DNA of 64,000 nt, from NCBI GenBank assembly GCA_965198235.1, contig OZ240248.1, forward strand, positions 3,456,001-3,520,000. Direction: 5' to 3'. The notes beneath the pieces were generated by a model. That model saw nothing but the letters and a program-made list of their open reading frames with translations, had not been told where the DNA came from and ran no database searches. The DNA is from Candidatus Poribacteria bacterium. Its GTDB lineage: Bacteria > Poribacteria > WGA-4E > WGA-3G. The position numbers and the translations under genes were made by a program. Shown piece after piece: positions 7,361-17,188 of this stretch (its first letter is position 1; each line of letters opens with the position of its first letter).

Positions 7361-8071
7361 TTAGAATCCTGCTTTCAGCGAACCCCAAGTCGTAGTAAGT
7401 TTGTTTTGTGCTTCAACAGCAGTCTGTGGATCGGTTTCATTCGGATTGAATTCCACATCTGTTGTCGCGAAAATTTTATCAATGTATGTACCATCTTCGC
7501 GATGGGCGATATGCAATGTGTGATCTCCGTCAGACAGTTCTACCGGAACCGGATCGTCACCGTGCTGGACGAGTTCAGTCCCCTCAAAGGGACCGTCGCG
7601 CGTGTTCAATCGGAACCAGACCCATTCGGTTGTAAAATTAACCCGGAGTGACTCTGCTTCAAAGAAGTCCCAGATGTTCATGGGGCCGTCATTGGTAGAG
7701 GTGACGTCACCATCAGCGGCATCGAATACCCAATAACAGGAATTATCGCCGACTGATGGAGCGATTACACGTCCCCAGAAATGCCAATTGTCTGCATCGA
7801 CTGAGAATTCGTATTTCACCCAGTCACCGCCATCGTTTGTAGCACCGTTAGCTGAACCGATGAAAGCACCGCCGGACGCTTCAGTGATGGTGTAATCGTC
7901 TACGCTTTCGGCTGCGTTTCCTGGTTGATCGGACGGGGCTTCGAAGACTTCAAATTTGGTGCCGTTTGAATCGTTGAAGCTCTCTGCTTCCCAACTAATA
8001 TATTTCTGTGCGAATGCGGGTGAAACAATGAGACTTAGCATCGCCAATAAAATGATAGTTCGCATTAACAA
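7361..8071 (-). CDS. Secreted protein, probable carbohydrate-binding beta-sandwich, with C-terminal 'AVE..KLTTTWG.LK' motif
   Basis: Signal peptide (…PAFA|Q), WEAE start, 'GDHTLHIAHREDGTYIDK' CBM-like strand; tail AVEAQNKLTTTWGSLKAGF. Confidence 0.8.
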   Translation of the reverse strand: MLMRTIILLAMLSLIVSPAFAQKYISWEAESFNDSNGTKFEVFEAPSDQPGNAAESVDDYTITEASGGAFIGSANGATNDGGDWVKYEFSVDADNWHFWGRVIAPSVGDNSCYWVFDAADGDVTSTNDGPMNIWDFFEAESLRVNFTTEWVWFRLNTRDGPFEGTELVQHGDDPVPVELSDGDHTLHIAHREDGTYIDKIFATTDVEFNPNETDPQTAVEAQNKLTTTWGSLKAGF

Positions 8072-8154
8072 ACCTCCTTAGAAAAGTGGATTGAAGTTAT
8101 TATAGCACATTAGAAAAAAACATGCTACTTTTTTGAGCATTTTTTTTGAGCATT

Positions 8155-8301
8155 TATGGTGAATTATCAAAACATATAGACAACTCAGTGAATTAGGGGA
8201 CGAGTACACTCTCCCTTGGTAGACGGGTTTCTCAACGTCCCTCCCCGTATTGGGCGGGAACCGCGGTTCGCGCTATACCGTAAATTGTAAAATCAACTAT
8301 A
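8155..8301. mobile_element. MITE of a second family (TATGGTGAATT...AATYMACYATA ends)
   Basis: Left end TATGGTGAATTATCAAAACATATAGACAACTCAGTG is near-identical to 51925 and similar to the reverse complement of 27097-27131; right end AATCAACTATA. Confidence 0.7.
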
Positions 8302-8315
8302 GTTTTGCCTTCTTT

Positions 8316-8440
8316 AGTCCCATTGGGACGATATGTTTATAGAACACGTTTTTCCATGCCTAAGCCCCGTAGGGGCGGCATGTGTGTAGAAACAGAGGCT
8401 ATCCTTTTCTTGAAGCCCCAGCGAGGCGACATCTGTAGAG
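8316..8440. repeat. Three tandem REP-like palindromic units (AGCCCCgtaGGGGCGRCATGT..TAGAA)
   Basis: agtcccattgggacgatatg…, agccccgtaggggcggcatg…, agccccagcgaggcgacatc… at ~47-nt spacing; related copies near 47185 and 56228. Confidence 0.7.
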
Positions 8441-8462
8441 TCATAGTATGCCAAGGTCATCT

Positions 8463-8705
8463 CTACATCAAGGCATCTTCGACTTCTTCAGGGAGTTCGA
8501 CTGTACTTGGGTCAACATCAATGGGATACTCAGTGCCGTACGCTTCAACAAGGTTATCAAAAGTGACGTTATCTACACGCTCAAGATCGTCACCCGGATG
8601 AACAAGCCATACACCATAACAGCCGTCACAACTGACGAGATCTACATCGTTTTTTTCAATTGGAAACTGCGTCAAGGGATTATTACAATCAGGGCAAGGT
8701 AGCAT
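8463..8705 (-). CDS. Small acidic zinc-ribbon (zf-TFIIB-like) protein
   Basis: CPDC...CDGCYGVW motif; GAGGAGG RBS; D/E-rich C-terminus. Confidence 0.75.
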   Translation of the reverse strand: MLPCPDCNNPLTQFPIEKNDVDLVSCDGCYGVWLVHPGDDLERVDNVTFDNLVEAYGTEYPIDVDPSTVELPEEVEDALM

Positions 8706-8754
8706 ATACGTTCCTCCTCGGAATAGTCTCGATCACACGATCGAGTGCTAAGGG

Positions 8755-9942
8755 TTAATCAGCAGCGGGGGCAAAGGTGTCAGGATTTTCCGCCGCGGCA
8801 TCATAATCGTCAATCAATTGAGTAATGACGGGGTTATCCCCGCAAAGTGGGCAGTTTTCATCTCGGTTGATTTTCAGTTCACGACAGGTCATGCTGAGTG
8901 CTTCGTAGAGGATGAGCCGCCCGATGAGGGGTTCGCCGATACCGATAATGTATTTAATCGCTTCGGTTGCCATCATGACACCAATTACGCCTGGGAGCAC
9001 GCCCAGGACACCTGCCTCACTTCAGCTGGGCACCATGCCCGGAGGGGGTGGTGTTGGGTACATGCATCGGTAGCACGGTCCCTCGTGTGGTTTAAAGAGC
9101 GATACCTGTCCCTCAAATTGGAAAATACTGCCGTGAACTATCGGCTTGTTCATCAACACCGCGGCATCGTTGACGAGAAAACGGGTCGCGAAGTTATCGC
9201 ATCCGTCGACAATCAGGTCGTATTCCGAAAAGATTTCTTCAACGTTATCCGCTGTCAAGCGGAGGTTATACGGTGTGATGTCGATATCTGGGTTCAAGGA
9301 CTTGATTGTCGTTGTCGCTGATTGAACCTTCGGTGTGCCGACCGATTCTGTACGGTGAAGGATCTGACGTTGGAGGTTGCTGAGCTCGACAACATCGGAA
9401 TCGATGATACCGAGGTGTCCAACACCGGCAGCACCGAGGTATACACCCGCGGGTGAACCTAAACCGCCCGCGCCGACGAGCAGCACCTTCGCATCAAGGA
9501 GTTTCGCTTGTCCCTGTTCTCCAACCTCAGTGAGCATAAAGTGGCGACTGTAACGATCCAGTTGCTCATGGGTCATTGGTTTATCTTGTGCAGTCGAGTA
9601 ACCCGCCGCCGTCCAATCGCGATATCCACCCGCAACAGAGACGGTATCGGTGTAACCCATTTCGCGTAGTGATTTCGCAGCGAGGAGGGAACGGAGTCCT
9701 GCTGCACAGTAAATGACGACCTTTTGGTTTCGGTCCGGGATGTAGTTCTCAACCGAAAATTCCAGCATTCCCCGTGTGACGTGCACCGCGTTGGGGATAT
9801 AGCCAGCGCGATATTCATCTTCGTCACGCACATCGAGTAGCACGAAATCGCTTTCTTTGTCCTGTTCGCTTTTTACCTCAGCGACGGTTACCTCCGGGAT
9901 TTCTGTTTTAGCTTCCTCAACGATTTGCCTATAGGATTTCAT
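8755..9942 (-). CDS. moeB: Rhodanese-MoeB/ThiF (E1-like adenylyltransferase) fusion, probable selenoprotein (UGA=Sec at 9022-9024), 395 aa
   Basis: Track ORFs 9022-9942 and 8755-9000 are in one frame, joined by TGA in MVPS-U-SEAGVLGVLPG (homologues have PSC.E.GVLG); rhodanese CAAGLRS; RYSRH, GAGGLGSP, SNLQRQ, PCYRC, CPLCG. Confidence 0.9.
8990..9007 (-). promoter_or_regulatory. Candidate bacterial SECIS hairpin
   Basis: CCUGGG-CGUGCU-CCCAGG stem-loop starting 14 nt 3' of the in-frame UGA; G at loop position 2. Confidence 0.7.
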
Positions 9943-10026
9943 GAGATTTTTCTCCTGCGGAAAAGGAATATGAATATCCGAGTTTCATATTCTTGTTCCT
10001 TATGTTTTGTCTTTTGCACTTGCAAA

Positions 10027-10055
10027 ATTATATCACAACCACGTGATATTGTCAA
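10027..10055 (-). promoter_or_regulatory. sigma70 promoter of moeB with an embedded palindrome ATATCAC-N6-GTGATAT
   Basis: Perfect TTGACA-N17-TATAAT on the minus strand; inverted repeat at 10030-10049. Confidence 0.75.
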
Positions 10056-10391
10056 TCTTTTATTTTTTTAGGGCAGAAGGAGGGTAAGGATAGAAAAATG
10101 GCGGTTTCCTGATAGGAGTATCAGCAAGGATAGGCAGGGATCAACAATCAGAGGTCGGTCAAGTCGCGAGTCTGGGGTGCGATTCAGACCTGAGGCACAG
10201 AAAATGGAGAGAATTTCAGAGTATTCAGAGTAAAACGTAAAAAATGGAAAACTAAATAGCCCTGGCCAACAAACAATATTCCCTTGACTTTTTACTTGAA
10301 TATAGGGTAAACTTAAAACAAGTTATATCTGCGGGAAAACCCCATCCCCGAACCACTGTTATCCCAAATAAAATGAAGGTTACTGCCTCCT

Positions 10392-12317
10392 ATGCCGAAA
10401 CAGAATTTCAACGAAAAATTGACCGTACTCCTCAAAACTCATCCCGACTTCCTTGACGATGCAGGCGAACTCATCCTCGCCGCCGTCAGAGACCACGCAT
10501 GGCAACTCAACCACGACCTCATCAAACTATTGCTCACTGACGACGAAATAAAGACAACCTTCTTTGACGAAATTGACGGGCATTGGGTTTTCAACCATAA
10601 CACCTTCATCAATTACATCACCGACAAAAACTTCCTCGCCAACTCCTACACCCAATTCCGCAACAAGATCGGCTTGAACATCGGCGGCAAATTCCTACGC
10701 GAACGCGGCGAGGTGTCCCTCGTTTGGCCCTATAAAGATTGCGTCTTGGAGGGCGGGCAGACGAAAGAAGAGGAAAAGCGTAAAGAGATTTTCTTTAACG
10801 AAACCCTTGCCCAAGACGAAATCAATCGGATGTTCGATCCGAAGGTCCTCACCAACTATAAGCGCCACACTGCTGAAGGTGAACAAGCGGTAACAGAGAT
10901 CCAACGGGACGAGAACGGTATCATTCGCGAAAACCTCATCATCAAAGGCAACAACCTCATCGCGCTCCACACCCTCAAACAGCAATTCCGTGGACAGGTC
11001 AAACTGATTTACATCGACCCGCCGTATAATACCGGAAGTGATAGTTTCAGTTACAACGATAGTTTTAACCATTCCAGTTGGCTGACTTTTATGAGAAATC
11101 GGTTGGAAGTAGCAAGGGAGCTTTTGAAGGATGATGGCGTTATCCTGGTTCACATTGATGATCAGGAAATGCACTATTTGAAACTTGTAGCTGATGATAT
11201 ATTCGGCAGAGATAACTTCATCGCTACTGTTCCGAGGAAAACTCGGAGCGGAAAAAGCGATGTCCCTTACAAACTATCACAGGACTTCGACTGGATGCTG
11301 ATGTACACAAAAGGCACATCGAAAAAAGATAATCTCTTCCAGCGGGACGTTTCACGAAAATATTACAAGACCTCCGATTTTCCTGACGACGAATGGAGAC
11401 TAAGCGACCTTACGACTCAACGGACAATTCACGAACGACCTAATTCCGATTTCACATTGGTAAACCCGAGAAATGGAGAAGGATTTCCGGTAAATCCCAA
11501 TCGCTGCTGGGGTATCACCAAAGATTCAGTAGATGGATATCTCAGAAAGGGAAAAATAGTCTTTCCGGGTGACTATGATTTTCTCAGCATAAAGCGTCCT
11601 GCTATGCGGGTTTTTAAGTCGGAAGATATAGGAAAAATGGCTTATGTGTCTTCGGATTTTCTGAATCAGGTAATGGATGAATTACTGAAAAGTATGGTCA
11701 ACAGGAAGGGCACAGACGAAATTGTGGAGATTTTTGGGAGAAAAGCATTTGCCTATCCAAAGAATGAACTATTGATGCAACGCATTATTGAATACATAAC
11801 AAAAGCAGGAGATATCGTTTTAGATTTCCATTTGGGCTCAGGCACAACCGCCGCCGTTGCTCACAAAATAGGCAGGCAATATATCGGCATCGAGCAAATG
11901 GATTACGCCGAAACTCTCCCCGTTGAACGCTTAAAAAAAGTGATTGCTGGTGAACAAGGTGGCATCTCCGAATCCGTCAATTGGCAGGGCGGTGGTGATT
12001 TTATCTTTTGCGAACTGATGCTATACAATCAAGCCTACATAGACAAAATTCAATCTGCACACTCCTCCGAAGTGCTTGTAGCACTCTGGCGAGACATCGC
12101 CGAAAACGCGTTCTTGAACTGGTACGTCAACCCCGAAGTCCCAGAAGAAGCAATAAACGATTTCATCGCCATCGGTGATCTTGAGAAACAGAAGCATTTG
12201 CTGGTAGAATTGTTGGATAAAAACCAACTCTACGTCAACCTCTCCGAAATAGAGGACGCGGATTTTGAGGTGAGTGCGGAAGATAAAGTGTTGAACAAGA
12301 CTTTTTATGGAAAATAA
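10392..12317 (+). CDS. mod: Type III restriction-modification methyltransferase (Mod), N6-adenine
   Basis: NLIIKGNNLIAL, IYIDPPYNTG (motif IV), FAYPKNE, VLDFHLGSGTTAAVA (motif I), GEQGGIS..VNWQGGG. Confidence 0.92.
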   Translation: MPKQNFNEKLTVLLKTHPDFLDDAGELILAAVRDHAWQLNHDLIKLLLTDDEIKTTFFDEIDGHWVFNHNTFINYITDKNFLANSYTQFRNKIGLNIGGKFLRERGEVSLVWPYKDCVLEGGQTKEEEKRKEIFFNETLAQDEINRMFDPKVLTNYKRHTAEGEQAVTEIQRDENGIIRENLIIKGNNLIALHTLKQQFRGQVKLIYIDPPYNTGSDSFSYNDSFNHSSWLTFMRNRLEVARELLKDDGVILVHIDDQEMHYLKLVADDIFGRDNFIATVPRKTRSGKSDVPYKLSQDFDWMLMYTKGTSKKDNLFQRDVSRKYYKTSDFPDDEWRLSDLTTQRTIHERPNSDFTLVNPRNGEGFPVNPNRCWGITKDSVDGYLRKGKIVFPGDYDFLSIKRPAMRVFKSEDIGKMAYVSSDFLNQVMDELLKSMVNRKGTDEIVEIFGRKAFAYPKNELLMQRIIEYITKAGDIVLDFHLGSGTTAAVAHKIGRQYIGIEQMDYAETLPVERLKKVIAGEQGGISESVNWQGGGDFIFCELMLYNQAYIDKIQSAHSSEVLVALWRDIAENAFLNWYVNPEVPEEAINDFIAIGDLEKQKHLLVELLDKNQLYVNLSEIEDADFEVSAEDKVLNKTFYGK

Positions 12318-12628
12318 AAAAGCCAGGAATATAGGATTGTGCTGGGCCGTAGCCTTCCAATAATAAGGAGAAAGAATGACTGAGGAAAGAAAAGAGGAAC
12401 TAAGGCAGTTGCTACAGAAAGCAACTGCACCGGAGAATTTGGAAATTGGAGACAGGTTTTCATTTCTGCCTATAAACGTTTATAGAACGTACTTACAGCA
12501 GTACCGGACATCTTATTGGGTACATTTTAATCCCCATATTGTAAATGAAGGAATAAAATTAAAACTGATTAATTTCATCAGAGAAGAGTTCGCTCCATTT
12601 ATCCGTGAAGACCTGATTTTACCTGCTA

Positions 12629-13869
12629 GTAGTCGTTCAATGTTGAGTTTGTAGTAAAGTTTGTTGACTTTTTGGGATGTTCTGTGATATATTCTTGATA
12701 TAATTTGAATCTCATCTCAAAGAGGCCTCCGATGAAAAAACATAAAGTTGAACTGACCTGTGAAGAACGTCAGACGCTACAAACGTTAGTTCGCAAGGGA
12801 CAACACAGTGCACTGAAGCTCATGCGTGCCCACATTTTGCTGAAGGCAGATAGCAATGGCCCCGGCTGGACGGATGCCCAAATCGCCGAGGCGTTCGGGT
12901 GCCATGAGCAAACCGCCTACAATGTTCGCAAACGTTTTGCGAGGCGCGGGTGTCTCTCTGCCTTGGACCGCAAACCCCAAAGTCGACCGTCTCACGTGCG
13001 GAAACTTGATGGTCAAGGCGAGGCGCGTTTGATAGCCTTGGCTTGTAGCAATCCGCCCGAGGGGTTCTCTCAGTGGACGCTGCAACTGCTCGCTGATGAA
13101 CTCGTTGAACTTCAGATTGTTGAAAGTATCTCTATTGAAACTGTTCGACAGACCCTAAAAAAAACGCCTTACGTCCGCATCGGTGGTCCTACTGGGTGAT
13201 CCCACCCGATGAAGATGCAGACTTCGTTGCGGCGATGGAGGCGGTCTTAGAGGTTTACCAGCGCCCTGAAGACGCGCGGTTTCCCGTTGTCGCTATGGAC
13301 GAACGTCCCGTGCAGTTGCTCGAAGACATCCGGTCTCCTGTGCCTGTCAAACCCGGGCGCATCGCACGTATCGATTACGAGTATAAGCGCATTGACGTGG
13401 TTTCTGCTTTCTTGTTTACCAACGCGCTTCAAGGGTGGCGGCGGGTCTCAGTGCGTCAACGCCGCACTGCCATAGATTGGGCAGAGGAAGTCAAGCACCT
13501 TTTAGAGGAAGTCTATCCCGATGCCGAGCGAGTGACATTGGTTTGCGATAATCTCAATACACATAAACTTACCTCTCTCTATAAAGCGTTTGCTGCCGAG
13601 GCGGCACTTGGGTTGTCTTCACGGTTAGAGTTGGTGCATACCCCGAAGCATGGGAGTTGGTTGAACATCGCTGAGATAGAACTCAGTGTCTTCTCAAGAC
13701 AATGTTTGAATCGGCGGATCCCTGACTTAGAGACGCTTCGATCAGAGGCAGAGGCGTGGCAAGAGTATCGCAATAAGACTGCGAACCGGGTCGATTGGCG
13801 GTTTACTACACAAGACGCACGCATCAAACTCAAAAGACTATACCCTAAAACTCAACCTTGATGCACTAC
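12629..13869 (+). mobile_element. IS630-family insertion sequence
   Basis: Imperfect TIRs GTAGTCGTTCAATGTTGAG / CTCAACCTTGATGCACTAC, duplicated TA in a CTAG target. Confidence 0.92.
12732..13861 (+). CDS. IS630 transposase (HTH orfA + DDE orfB joined by a -1 frameshift at the A8 run 13157-13164)
   Basis: orfA HTH 'LIALACS.PPEG..WTLQLLA'; -1 frame reads NALRPHRWSYWVIPP into MDE, DNLNTH, TPKHGSWLNIAEIE. Confidence 0.9.
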
Positions 13870-13882
13870 TAGTTATTTTCTA

Positions 13883-14973
13883 TAGGACTTACGCAATAGT
13901 TTAGAAAAGTGTTATACTTAGAGATTATGAAAACCTTATCCCTCTCAGAAAAGAAGCAGCCGTTATTTTCGGATTACTGTCAGTTTCTGTTAGCAAGTTT
14001 CGACAACTTCACACAGACGTATTTTGCGGATCACACCGAGAAGTGGAGTCATGACCCACTCAATCGTCTGCTGCGTGAAGAACGTATCTCTGCTGGCGAC
14101 TTGTGGCGATCGGTGAAAAACGATATAGAGTTTCATCCAGACGGCTACCTCCTCTTTGACGATACCGTTGTGTCAAAACCCTACGGAAACCAAGCGATTC
14201 AACCGGTTCGCAGACAATGGAGCGGTTCTGAGAAGCGCGTCGTTGAAGGTATCGGTATTGTCACATGCGTCTATGTCCATCCAAAGACGCATGCCTATTG
14301 GATCATTGATTATCGTATTTATGACGTTGACCGAGATGCTAAAACCAAGTTGGAGCATCTTCTGGATATGTTGCGGAATGCTCATTTCGTCAAACGTCTA
14401 CCTTTTCGGACGGTGTTGATAGATGCCTGGTATGCTTCAATGAACGTCATGAAAGCGATTGAAGCACTTTCTAAAGTCTACTATGCGCCCCTGAAACGTA
14501 ATCGTCTTGTCAGCACTTCGGTAGAAACGCCTTACCCACGCATTGAGGCACTGACATGGACACCTGCTGAAGCGTCTGAAGGCACACTCGTGCATATCAA
14601 TAAGTTTCCCAAAGGTCATCAAGTGAAGGTGTTTCGGCTCGTGTCCGACTCCGGGCGCACGGAATATATTGCCACCAACGATTTATCTCAATCCGATACC
14701 GAGGCGACGCAACAGAAATGTCGTCTCCGCTGGAAGATTGAGCAACTTCACCGGGAACTGAAACAGACGACAGGGATTGGCGAGTGTCAGTGTCGTCAGC
14801 ATCGTGCCCAACGCAATCACATCGCCTGTTGTCTATGGGTCTGGGTCTCTCTGACGCGTGCTGCTCGGGCAGCCGGTCAAACCATTTATCAACTCAAGGA
14901 AAGTTTACGCCATGACTACATGCGACAACAACTTCAAAAACCTACTATTTCTGTCAATATTGCGTAAGTCCTA
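13883..14973 (+). mobile_element. IS701-family (IS4-like DDE) insertion sequence
   Basis: 16-bp TIR TAGGACTTACGCAATA / TATTGCGTAAGTCCTA; 5-bp TSD TTCTA at 13878-13882 and 14974-14978. Confidence 0.9.
13909..14967 (+). CDS. IS701-family transposase
   Basis: FDDT..KPY, IDYRIYD.D.D.KTK, DAWY, RWKIEQLHRELKQ motifs; stop lies within the right TIR. Confidence 0.9.
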   Translation: MLYLEIMKTLSLSEKKQPLFSDYCQFLLASFDNFTQTYFADHTEKWSHDPLNRLLREERISAGDLWRSVKNDIEFHPDGYLLFDDTVVSKPYGNQAIQPVRRQWSGSEKRVVEGIGIVTCVYVHPKTHAYWIIDYRIYDVDRDAKTKLEHLLDMLRNAHFVKRLPFRTVLIDAWYASMNVMKAIEALSKVYYAPLKRNRLVSTSVETPYPRIEALTWTPAEASEGTLVHINKFPKGHQVKVFRLVSDSGRTEYIATNDLSQSDTEATQQKCRLRWKIEQLHRELKQTTGIGECQCRQHRAQRNHIACCLWVWVSLTRAARAAGQTIYQLKESLRHDYMRQQLQKPTISVNIA

Positions 14974-16138
14974 TTCTATTTGGAGGACCTAGCGAGGGAT
15001 TCTCTCTGGATGACCTACTCACACAACTTCTAAAAATTACCATTGCTCACGGTGTAGAAAGAGTAGTATCAGATTTTGATCGATGCACCACAGATAAGTT
15101 CGGTTCGGTTCAATATATTGCATTACTTGAGGGAATAAGACTAAAAACAGAGATCCAAGTTTTTGATGGAATACGGCTTGTTCCCCTTTCAAATTCAACC
15201 TTAGAACTCCCGCGTTATTTGTCTAATATTAGCATCAGTGGCACATCAGTAGATTTCTTCTTAGAAAAAACATTGCTCATCATTGATTGTTCTGTGTCCC
15301 CCATATTTCACAAACCTTTCGGATCAATAACATTTCAAGAATATGACGAGCGCGAAAAACGGGCATTTCAGATTGAGATGAGTAGCAAAGATTTTCCATA
15401 CCTTAAGGTGGATGATTTTCCTGTAATTCTTCTTTGCCAAGCATTGGCTTTAGCTTGCAATTCGGCAGTTGAAATTTCTCTCGTTACCAGATTTTTGGCG
15501 GAAGATAAACTCTATAATCTTAACTTCGGAATAGGTGGTGGAGTCTCTATGTATCGCGGTCCCTTTGGAACCTTCGCTGAGGCAGGGCAGCCTGAAATAG
15601 ATAAAGCCAAATTCCTGTACAACATCTTGGTCAACCCATCTTCAAACCTTAAGGAAAGACTGCGGATAACGATTGATAGATGGATAAAGTCAAAAGTAAA
15701 TAAGGATCCCGTTGATAGAATCATTGATCTAGGGATAGCCCTTGAATCCCTATACTTATCGGGGACAGAGTCCAAAAATGAAATACGTTTTAGGTTTAGT
15801 CTTCATGCTGCTTGGCACTTGGGAGAAAATAAAGAACATAGGGAAGGGCTAATGAAGAAGTTCAAGGCAATATATGATTGGCGTTCCGCGGTTGTTCACA
15901 CAGGGAAACTGCCCGAGAAAGGAAGGGGAAAAAAGAAAAAATCGTATACTCAAGAAGAGGTTAGAGAGTTTATCCGCAACGCTCAAGACTTATGTCGGGA
16001 CTCAATAATGAAGATTTTGGAAGAAGGGAAATTCCCCGATTGGAACAATTTAATACTCGGTTAAGTTGATATTTAACGCCGAACACTATATAATAAATTG
16101 TCGTGTAACACCAAATTAATTTTCCATGTTCATAGGCG

Positions 16139-17188
16139 ATGCAAAAAGAAACAGAATTACTCACTTTTTTCGATTTTCCAATTGAACAATTTCCAGACCG
16201 GAGCACGCGATGGCTGTTAGAAGACAAGGAAAACGTCCGGGGGTTGTTAGAAATTGTTGCCGAGCATCTGGTTGCGCATCTTGATTTTCGTCGACTCGCG
16301 CATATCAATAGGAGTTTTATCCCTGACAACCTTCGCGAGCAAGAATCCGACATCGTGTATAGGGTGCCGTTCCGTAGTGAATCGAAAACCGATGAACTCT
16401 TAATTTATATACTCATTGAGCATCAGTCGACGATCGACGTAACGATGGGATTTCGACTGCTGTTCTATATGACCCAGATTTGGGATTTCCAACGCCGCGA
16501 GTGGGAATCAAGCAACATTCCTAAAAGCCAGTGGCGTTTCCGTCCCATTATCCCGATTGTGTTTTATACCGGAGAGCAAAGATGGCAAACACCGCTAACG
16601 CTCAGGACTGTGATGGATTTGCCCGATGCGCTTTCCGAGTTCGTTCCGAAATTTGAGACCCTATTTTTCAGCGTAAAGGACACCGATGCAGCAAATCTAA
16701 CGAGAACCGACCATCCATTCGGATGGTTGCTGACCGTCCTACAAAAGGAGCATGCAAACAAAGAAGAGATGCGCACCGCGTTGAGGCAAGCGGTAGCACA
16801 TATTGACACCCTTGATGAAGAGAAAACGCAGCAGTGGCGACGGGCGGTTTTCTATCTGTATCTACTAATCCTCCATCGTCGTCCAACTGAAGAACACGAC
16901 GAATTGAAAACGCTGGTTCAACAGCAAATCCAAGAAACTTCTCGTAGAGAGGAGGGAGAAACAATGGCACAGACAATGGCTGAATACTTGATTGAACAGG
17001 GTGAGAAACGCGGTGAAACACAAGCGAAACGTGAAGCAGTCCTCAAACTGCTGCGATTTCGATTCAATATCGTTCCCGAATCCGTTACTCGCAAGATTTC
17101 CGTAATGCGGAGCCTTTCGCGCCTTGATGCACTCTTTGAGGCAGCCTTGATTGCCCAAACACTCGATGACATTGATTGGGAAGACTAA
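16139..17188 (+). CDS. Rpn-family recombination-promoting nuclease / putative transposase (PD-(D/E)XK)
   Basis: SFI..NLRE.ESDIVY, YILIEHQST, RLLFYM..IW, PIIPIVFYTG, C-terminal 'MAE.LIEQGEKRG' repeat. Confidence 0.9.
   Translation: MQKETELLTFFDFPIEQFPDRSTRWLLEDKENVRGLLEIVAEHLVAHLDFRRLAHINRSFIPDNLREQESDIVYRVPFRSESKTDELLIYILIEHQSTIDVTMGFRLLFYMTQIWDFQRREWESSNIPKSQWRFRPIIPIVFYTGEQRWQTPLTLRTVMDLPDALSEFVPKFETLFFSVKDTDAANLTRTDHPFGWLLTVLQKEHANKEEMRTALRQAVAHIDTLDEEKTQQWRRAVFYLYLLILHRRPTEEHDELKTLVQQQIQETSRREEGETMAQTMAEYLIEQGEKRGETQAKREAVLKLLRFRFNIVPESVTRKISVMRSLSRLDALFEAALIAQTLDDIDWED

Follow-up and report, generated by a model that had tools for sequence, protein, structure and literature searches.

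The gene at positions 9942-8755 (minus strand) of the window, a 64,000-nucleotide stretch of a Candidatus Poribacteria genome, is almost certainly intact and, as read from its sequence, encodes a selenoprotein in which UGA at codon 307 specifies selenocysteine (Sec). The predicted product combines an N-terminal rhodanese domain with a ThiF/MoeB (E1-like) adenylation domain and adds one more member to a selenoprotein family so far predicted by computer only. The best explanation of the data as a whole, which we consider quite likely, is a Sec-containing two-domain enzyme that acts on small carrier proteins by the mechanism proposed below.

Reading frame and domain architecture

The gene is a single 395-codon frame whose sole internal stop, TGA at 9024-9022, lies between PPPGMVPS and SEAGVLGVLPG. 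An ORF listing divides it into a 306-residue ORF and an 81-residue ORF with a GTG start, both in the same frame, and the proposal of a sequence-only reading of this DNA that the two are one frame split by the TGA is confirmed. The features of the gene are given below, with counts that refer to 130 related loci and to the 109 distinct coding sequences (59-100% identity) among them.

8755..9942, minus strand: rhodanese and ThiF/MoeB (E1-like) selenoprotein gene, 395 aa, predicted from translation, Pfam and NCBIfam PRK08762
9952..9956, minus strand: AGGAG, RBS-like, ahead of the ATG, read from the sequence
9607..9885, minus strand: rhodanese domain, residues 20-112 (Pfam PF00581), with C79 at 9708-9706 in CAAGLRS
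8848..9552, minus strand: ThiF/E1 adenylation domain, residues 131-365 (Pfam PF00899)
9064..9075, minus strand: first CxxC of the zinc site (C290, C293), 5' of the UGA, kept in 109/109
9022..9024, minus strand: in-frame UGA, codon 307, predicted to be read as Sec, on the crossover-loop Cys column (alignment; TGA in 130/130 loci)
8842..8853, minus strand: second CxxC of the zinc site (C364, C367), which needs read-through of the UGA, kept in 106/109

The read-through protein matches the NCBIfam PRK08762 MoeB model (NF006444) over residues 5-383 with 535.2 bits, passing the curated cut-off of 449, and scores 397 against the MoeZ model, below its cut-off of 647. The signature of ThiF/MoeB E1-like proteins is present, comprising GxGxxG, the conserved Arg, Lys and Asp residues, and two CxxC motifs. 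The GxGxxG loop, R130, R192, K205 and D249 of the E1 domain are unchanged in 109/109 distinct coding sequences, as are C79, G82, R84 and S85 of the rhodanese domain; the assignment of CAAGLRS to an N-terminal rhodanese in the sequence-only reading is thus upheld. The column of residue 307 holds Cys in ThiF (1zud), MoeB (1jw9) and Uba4 (6yub), in agreement with the earlier placement of the Sec at the conserved MoeB/ThiF Cys column. The predicted structure has a mean pLDDT of 80.9 and a pLDDT below 50 in loop 301-312, and it is therefore silent on how Sec307 reaches Cys79. Three loci of family f4 (L067, L070 and L071) have lost the second zinc CxxC and retain the UGA and the hairpin described below.

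Similar to the rhodanese-first MoeB proteins of PRK08762, the window gene places the rhodanese domain ahead of the E1 domain; its nearest full-length homologues carry Cys at the column where the window gene carries Sec. Yeast Uba4 likewise contains an E1 domain and a rhodanese domain in one chain, with a loop Cys that aligns with residue 307. According to the accessible text of PMC6007339, Uba4 differs in having a C-terminal rather than an N-terminal rhodanese domain, Cys rather than Sec, and Urm1 as its client. The mycobacterial E1-rhodanese protein MoeZR thiocarboxylates both MoaD and CysO (PMC3227635), and it differs in its C-terminal rhodanese domain; Sec is unmentioned in the available part of that paper. 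Escherichia coli ThiF (1zud) and MoeB (1jw9) have the same adenylation fold, both CxxC motifs and Cys at the loop column, but they have no rhodanese domain and receive sulfur in trans, ThiF Cys184 forming an acyl disulfide and MoeB being described as thioester-free. The window enzyme probably works like MoeZ, Uba4 and MOCS3 with the domain order reversed; with its rhodanese domain at the N terminus, it is not a member of their class.

Conservation of the UGA codon and of the hairpin that follows it

In 130/130 related loci examined base by base, which are not independent samples, codon 307 reads TGA, none having TAA or TAG there, and in each of them the frame stays open for 85-94 codons past the UGA. 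An orthologue that is full-length and has a single TGA was found in 59/61 relative genomes. The phylum survey covered 176 genomes, 159 from the own order of the host and 17 from outside it. A match at the level of the full gene (E <1e-150) was obtained in 153/159 genomes of the order, and all 153 full-length orthologues carry one TGA; the remaining six gave matches at the level of the paralogue only. From the other 17 Poribacteria genomes, several of them only 61-79% complete, the query retrieved no full-length match and no TGA within a MoeB domain. Purifying selection acts on the codons after the UGA: against 88 close orthologues, codons 320-395 have a dN/dS of 0.050, compared with 0.041 in the rhodanese part and 0.022 in codons 121-306, dS being saturated in 16-21 pairs per region.

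The hairpin CCUGGG-CGUGCU-CCCAGG begins 14 nt past the UGA, as noted in the sequence-only reading.

8990..9007, minus strand: SECIS hairpin, within codons 312-318, with a 6-bp stem and a 6-nt loop (9001-8996); synonymous-site constraint

The loop begins 20 nt past the UGA, loop positions 2-3 are G (the G noted earlier) and then U, and the hairpin core folds at -9.2 kcal/mol. The limits for bacterial SECIS elements given in the available text of PMC13188914 are a loop of 3-9 nt, a stem of 4-16 bp, a G within loop positions 1-2, a spacing of 16-37 nt from the UGA, and an MFE <= -7.5. The window hairpin lies within all of these (loop 6, stem 6, G at 2, spacing 20, -9.2 kcal/mol). The folding energy of the 65 nt from the UGA shows no excess over chance (z = +0.46; 128/200 shuffles fold equally well). 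Folding energy, being not significant, was rejected as evidence for the hairpin, and conservation was used in its place. An Rfam search of positions 8000-10400 at E <= 1 gave no match.

In the 109 distinct coding sequences, the eight lowest of 122 four-fold-degenerate columns (median entropy 1.6 bits) are codons 311-318. In the loop, codons 314 and 315 show no variation (109/109), and the variants at three stem codons all preserve pairing: codon 313 is CTG in 107 and TTG in 2, codon 316 is CTC in 108 and CTT in 1, and codon 317 is CCA in 98 and CCG in 11. The outer stem pair (codon 312) is broken in 5/109. Across codons 308-319, dS is 0.20, compared with 1.24-1.36 elsewhere in the gene. As a control, 21 copies of a Cys paralogue (TGT 13, TGC 8) vary freely at the hairpin codons. 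The 109 Poribacteria sequences show no two-sided compensatory change in the stem, as most of its bases are dictated by the protein; given this and the relatedness of the genomes, the pattern speaks for constraint, not for covariation. The hairpin is conserved far beyond chance.

The host genome contains selA, selB and selD above curated cut-offs, with the tRNA-Sec gene adjoining selB, and selD itself contains one TGA. A strict genome-wide screen for read-through TGA codons returned 15 candidates, a number that is no census, as the screen missed both the Sec-MoeB gene and selD. From the Sec machinery together with these further candidates, it follows that the organism uses Sec. In the order, selA was found in 151/159 genomes. 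Those checks proposed in the sequence-only reading that sequence data can answer came out in its favor: the sel genes are in the genome, Cys stands at the column in paralogues and nearest full-length homologues and UGA in orthologues, selection persists past the UGA, and the synonymous sites of the hairpin are frozen in the orthologues and free in the Cys paralogues.

Proposed mechanism, its alternatives and the carrier proteins

In the proposed mechanism, SelB bound to the codon 312-318 hairpin would bring Sec-tRNA to UGA 307, yielding the 395-residue enzyme, whose E1 domain would adenylate the C-terminal Gly of a carrier. Sec307, as the crossover-loop nucleophile, would take the carrier off the adenylate as a selenoester, the carrier would pass from this selenoester to the Cys79 persulfide, and reduction would free the carrier thiocarboxylate. 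Family knowledge and the conserved residues make it highly probable that the carrier is of the ThiS/MoaD/CysO type and that the thiocarboxylate sulfur comes from the Cys79 persulfide. The selenoester and its hand-over to Cys79 are modeled on C225 and C397 of Uba4, which form a thioester and then an acyl persulfide in the published account (PMC6007339), and we lean slightly toward this course of events. Upkeep of the UGA and the SECIS element across the order is costly, so residue 307 should matter. A catalytic role at this residue is likely, not certain, since the MoeB/MoaD system is described as thioester-free and archaeal UbaA bypasses the canonical site (PMC6007339, same text). The term "active-site" Cys in the sequence-only reading is accordingly apt for the Cys of Uba4 and ThiF, which is catalytic, and does not extend to MoeB/MoaD as described there; for the window enzyme it is an extrapolation.

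Read as a true stop, the UGA would mark a pseudogene or a 306-residue product followed by a separate 81-residue tail; alternatively, it could be an assembly error or a Trp or Cys codon. Public gene calls end at 306/307 residues, the 81-residue ORF might be initiated at an in-frame GTG (position 9000), and the intact Cys paralogue might compensate for a loss. Against these points, the TGA falls exactly on the Cys column, and the synonymous freeze falls exactly at the SECIS position. The codon is never TAA or TAG in the related loci or in at least 120 metagenome loci, the latter by design of the search pattern. The possibility of an assembly error raised in the sequence-only reading is excluded because TGA recurs in 130/130 loci. 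Since TGA also serves as the normal terminal stop of the gene in 24/130 loci, the genetic code is standard. Contigs from sponge RNA libraries of two runs bridge codon 307 with 6 and 10 differences overall, itemized in part, and thus demonstrate the invariance of that codon incompletely. All in all, these explanations are extremely improbable, and the Sec-containing enzyme is retained.

The alternatives that accept Sec concern its task. Sec307 could be a resolving residue: the Cys79 persulfide would attack the adenylate, Sec307 would cleave the acyl persulfide, and an Se-S bond would be left for thioredoxin. ThiF Cys184, which forms an adduct and acts by disulfide exchange (PMC12596934, available text), offers a precedent, Sec usually stands in for redox-active Cys (PMC13188914), and the other candidate selenoproteins of the genome are mostly of UxxC redox types. 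Such a role was, however, examined for the loop Cys of Uba4, the closest two-domain system tested, and rejected in favor of the thioester (PMC6007339), and we regard it as a possible but rather unlikely description of the window enzyme. A more distant alternative is that the enzyme handles selenium itself, converting selenide to a carrier selenocarboxylate that could serve, for instance, in making free selenocysteine or a selenium-containing cofactor. The many candidate selenoproteins of the genome and the position of one carrier behind xanthine-dehydrogenase-family genes would fit this idea, as would the divergent selA neighbor of the Sec-MoeB gene in 2/130 loci (L129:3206-4651 and L141) and, by coordinates, in four genus-g13 genomes (G110, G112, G119 and G138). 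Because only one subclade has selA next to the gene, this adjacency was rejected as a functional link. Among the 120 metagenome loci listed, no SelA, SelB or SelD match was found near the Sec-MoeB gene, whereas carrier, JAB or cysteine-synthase genes were found in three. An enzyme may contain Sec without acting on selenium, and this alternative is very improbable. Sec-MoeB is a well-sampled selenoprotein with a built-in control, a Cys paralogue of 64% identity that the host genome also encodes; the role of selenium at an E1 catalytic-loop position thereby becomes directly testable, acyl transfer rather than the usual redox chemistry being at issue.

The genome encodes four ThiS-family carriers and only two ThiF-family genes above cut-off, Sec-MoeB and the Cys paralogue, which is without a rhodanese domain. 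The carriers are a MoaD with moaE; a CysO-like protein in a cysK-cysH-carrier-JAB operon; a ThiS after thiO, followed by a gene that is without a family match and looks like thiG; and the carrier after the xanthine-dehydrogenase-family genes. Three of the four extend past Gly-Gly and would therefore need the JAB protease, of which the genome encodes one. Sec-MoeB is probably the housekeeping activator of several of these carriers (thiamine, molybdopterin and possibly cysteine), similar to the single MoeZR that serves both MoaD and CysO (PMC3227635). The Cys paralogue would instead be tied to a sulfite-reductase operon: it is preceded by a 192-residue unnamed gene in 20/20 loci and by a sulfite reductase-TusA fusion in 15/20. 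In the host, this operon (fusion, 192-residue protein and Cys MoeB paralogue) lies at C1:640590-647174; it is found order-wide and is often interrupted by insertions.

Distribution, locus context and other candidate selenoproteins

Sec-MoeB was predicted in 2005 on the basis of 11 Sargasso Sea sequences (PMC1088965), counted in the GOS data as 19 Sec versus 2,262 Cys forms of the MoeB family (PMC2398784), not detected in Olavius symbionts (PMC1976440), and tabulated among predicted selenoproteins in PMC9312934 and PMC13188914 (representative MBT7809913.1), all as given in the available parts of these papers. The window protein resembles this family in its PF00899/COG0476 domain, a single Sec paired with Cys in homologues, and a SECIS-like hairpin 3' of the UGA. 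The likeness is one of domain and a single Sec, as the available text of PMC1088965, PMC2398784, PMC9312934 and PMC13188914 gives neither the position of the Sec nor the host or domain architecture. That text makes no mention of an N-terminal rhodanese fusion, of order-wide fixation in Poribacteria, of a Cys paralogue or of a hairpin nearly identical between lineages. A search of the open literature, with most subscription journals outside its scope, found no bench study of Sec-MoeB and no report of it as a Poribacteria selenoprotein. Poribacteria are abundant sponge symbionts. Most public protein records for these genes are 306-307 residues long (e.g., MXV73760.1 and MDE0683062.1). The expectation that standard pipelines would call a pseudogene was thus right about misannotation and wrong about its form, as public sets hold a truncated protein rather than a missing gene. 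The error is systematic: the public 306-residue fragment of this core Poribacteria gene lacks half of the zinc site.

The description of Sec-MoeB as rare in the sequence-only reading does not hold, given its fixation across the order and its occurrence in at least 120 metagenome loci. These loci all encode MoeB-family proteins with TGA on the Sec307 column, which the scan pattern, a protein motif with free synonymous positions, sets by design. The 18-nt hairpin of the window or its one-base variant is found in 105 of the 120 loci listed, mostly at 50-65% protein identity and 43-76% G+C. For the complete frames among the matches listed, the rhodanese domain is N-terminal in 41, C-terminal in 7 and undetected in 4. 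Genes with the same peptide (n=101 among the matches listed) carry the exact hairpin in 90 cases, where their own codon usage would predict 1.1; CCA accounts for 145/2,482 Pro codons elsewhere in the metagenome genes listed, versus 90/120 at codon 317. The exact hairpin occurs in 7/16 clusters among the matches listed, a sample dominated by one cluster (77/102 at 70% identity). Of the synonymous encodings of the peptide, 2.8% form a 6-bp stem and 0.17% do so with Watson-Crick pairs only. A hairpin that is identical letter for letter at 50-60% protein identity makes a good case for the origin of a SECIS element inside constrained coding sequence.

On a tree of 48 rows, reduced from 171 by dropping short rows and thinning near-copies, the Sec/Cys label requires five changes, at least three of these on well-supported branches, and a single Sec clade is rejected (p-AU 8e-5). 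The Cys rows are top matches and paralogues only, and the tree is unrooted with long branches, so gains are indistinguishable from reversions. One clade, in which Sec and Cys forms are close sisters (L237, L249, L223 and L268 with P0018 and P0081), has a different hairpin with a 7-nt loop and is a candidate for recent gain or loss of Sec. A broader reading, offered tentatively and at somewhat less than even chances, is that Sec-MoeB represents a natural E1 whose ubiquitin-E1-type catalytic Cys is Sec and which acts via a selenoester, that it is commoner than surveys suggest, and that it has been gained or lost repeatedly with the same 18-nt SECIS element. The recurrence of one element would arise because the VLGVLPG peptide permits very few usable hairpins. 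If this is true, sulfur transfer for thiamine and molybdopterin in Poribacteria is selenium-dependent, alongside a selenium-free paralogue tied to sulfite reduction.

The context of the gene in the window includes the following features.

10027..10055, minus strand: sigma-70 consensus promoter, 12/12, with a 17-nt spacer and extended -10 TG, 84 nt ahead of the start codon
8463..8705, minus strand: gene for an 80-aa acidic Zn-ribbon protein, 49 nt 3' of the Sec-MoeB gene (Pfam PF13453, E 7e-8)

The promoter is a 12/12 match in 89/106 orthologous loci with enough flank. Promoters of the genome are unusually consensus-like: there are 121 perfect TTGACA-N16-18-TATAAT sites versus about 3 expected, 40 of them with extended -10 TG. 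With 121 such sites genome-wide, the perfect promoter of the Sec-MoeB gene suggests strong expression of a housekeeping gene and nothing stranger. The Zn-ribbon gene, which is probably co-transcribed with the Sec-MoeB gene, lies 3' of it in 88/130 loci. Neither the 11 genomes tested from genus g13 nor the 7 from family f4 yielded it, and all of them keep the Sec gene; an obligatory partnership is ruled out by this negative result in 18/18 genomes, and a role as carrier is ruled out by the lack of a C-terminal GG. Its Atlas matches are unnamed clusters, recognized below the reliable level. No carrier gene was found beside the Sec-MoeB gene in Poribacteria. Among metagenome loci longer than 2.5 kb, Sec-MoeB shares an operon with a carrier and JAB in 3/54: together with cysteine synthase in L217 and L224, and with a Cys/Met PLP enzyme in L209. 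These arrangements recall the multi-carrier setting of MoeZR; the neighbor search scanned 77/152 candidate ORFs, and most neighbors are unrelated housekeeping genes.

In each of the four RNA runs, the summed contig depth at positions 8311-8395 of the window, 3' of the Zn-ribbon gene, is very high and loose ends are numerous, which suggests a dispersed repeat element. At positions 10392-17188, transposase genes of the IS630 (two ORFs), IS701 and YhgA-like types come after a type III restriction-modification methylase, and this region differs among relatives.

Pfam was run on 13 candidate regions from the read-through screen, and nine matched a family: a formate-dehydrogenase-like protein, thioredoxin, two AhpC/TSA proteins, HMA, a WD40 protein, DUF3179, DUF5069 and an Ig-like domain. 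The Ig-like candidate (C1:3047545-3048246) has a D-U-C motif, and the DUF5069 candidate (C1:1814861-1815133) is a short protein with the in-frame TGA inside the domain. Two tandem HMA-type frames (C1:2526665-2527593) carry MT-U-GAC (UxxC) motifs and related hairpins; the same motif with a related hairpin is found in a cytochrome-c/WD40 protein with an HMA-like C-terminal part (C1:1343176-1344858). Two paralogous frames of ~520 residues (C1:5037514-5039067 and C1:1265793-1267400), without a Pfam or NCBIfam match, have the in-frame TGA in ESC-U-ANGK and a similar hairpin whose loop is GGUC, and they are possibly an uncatalogued selenoprotein family.
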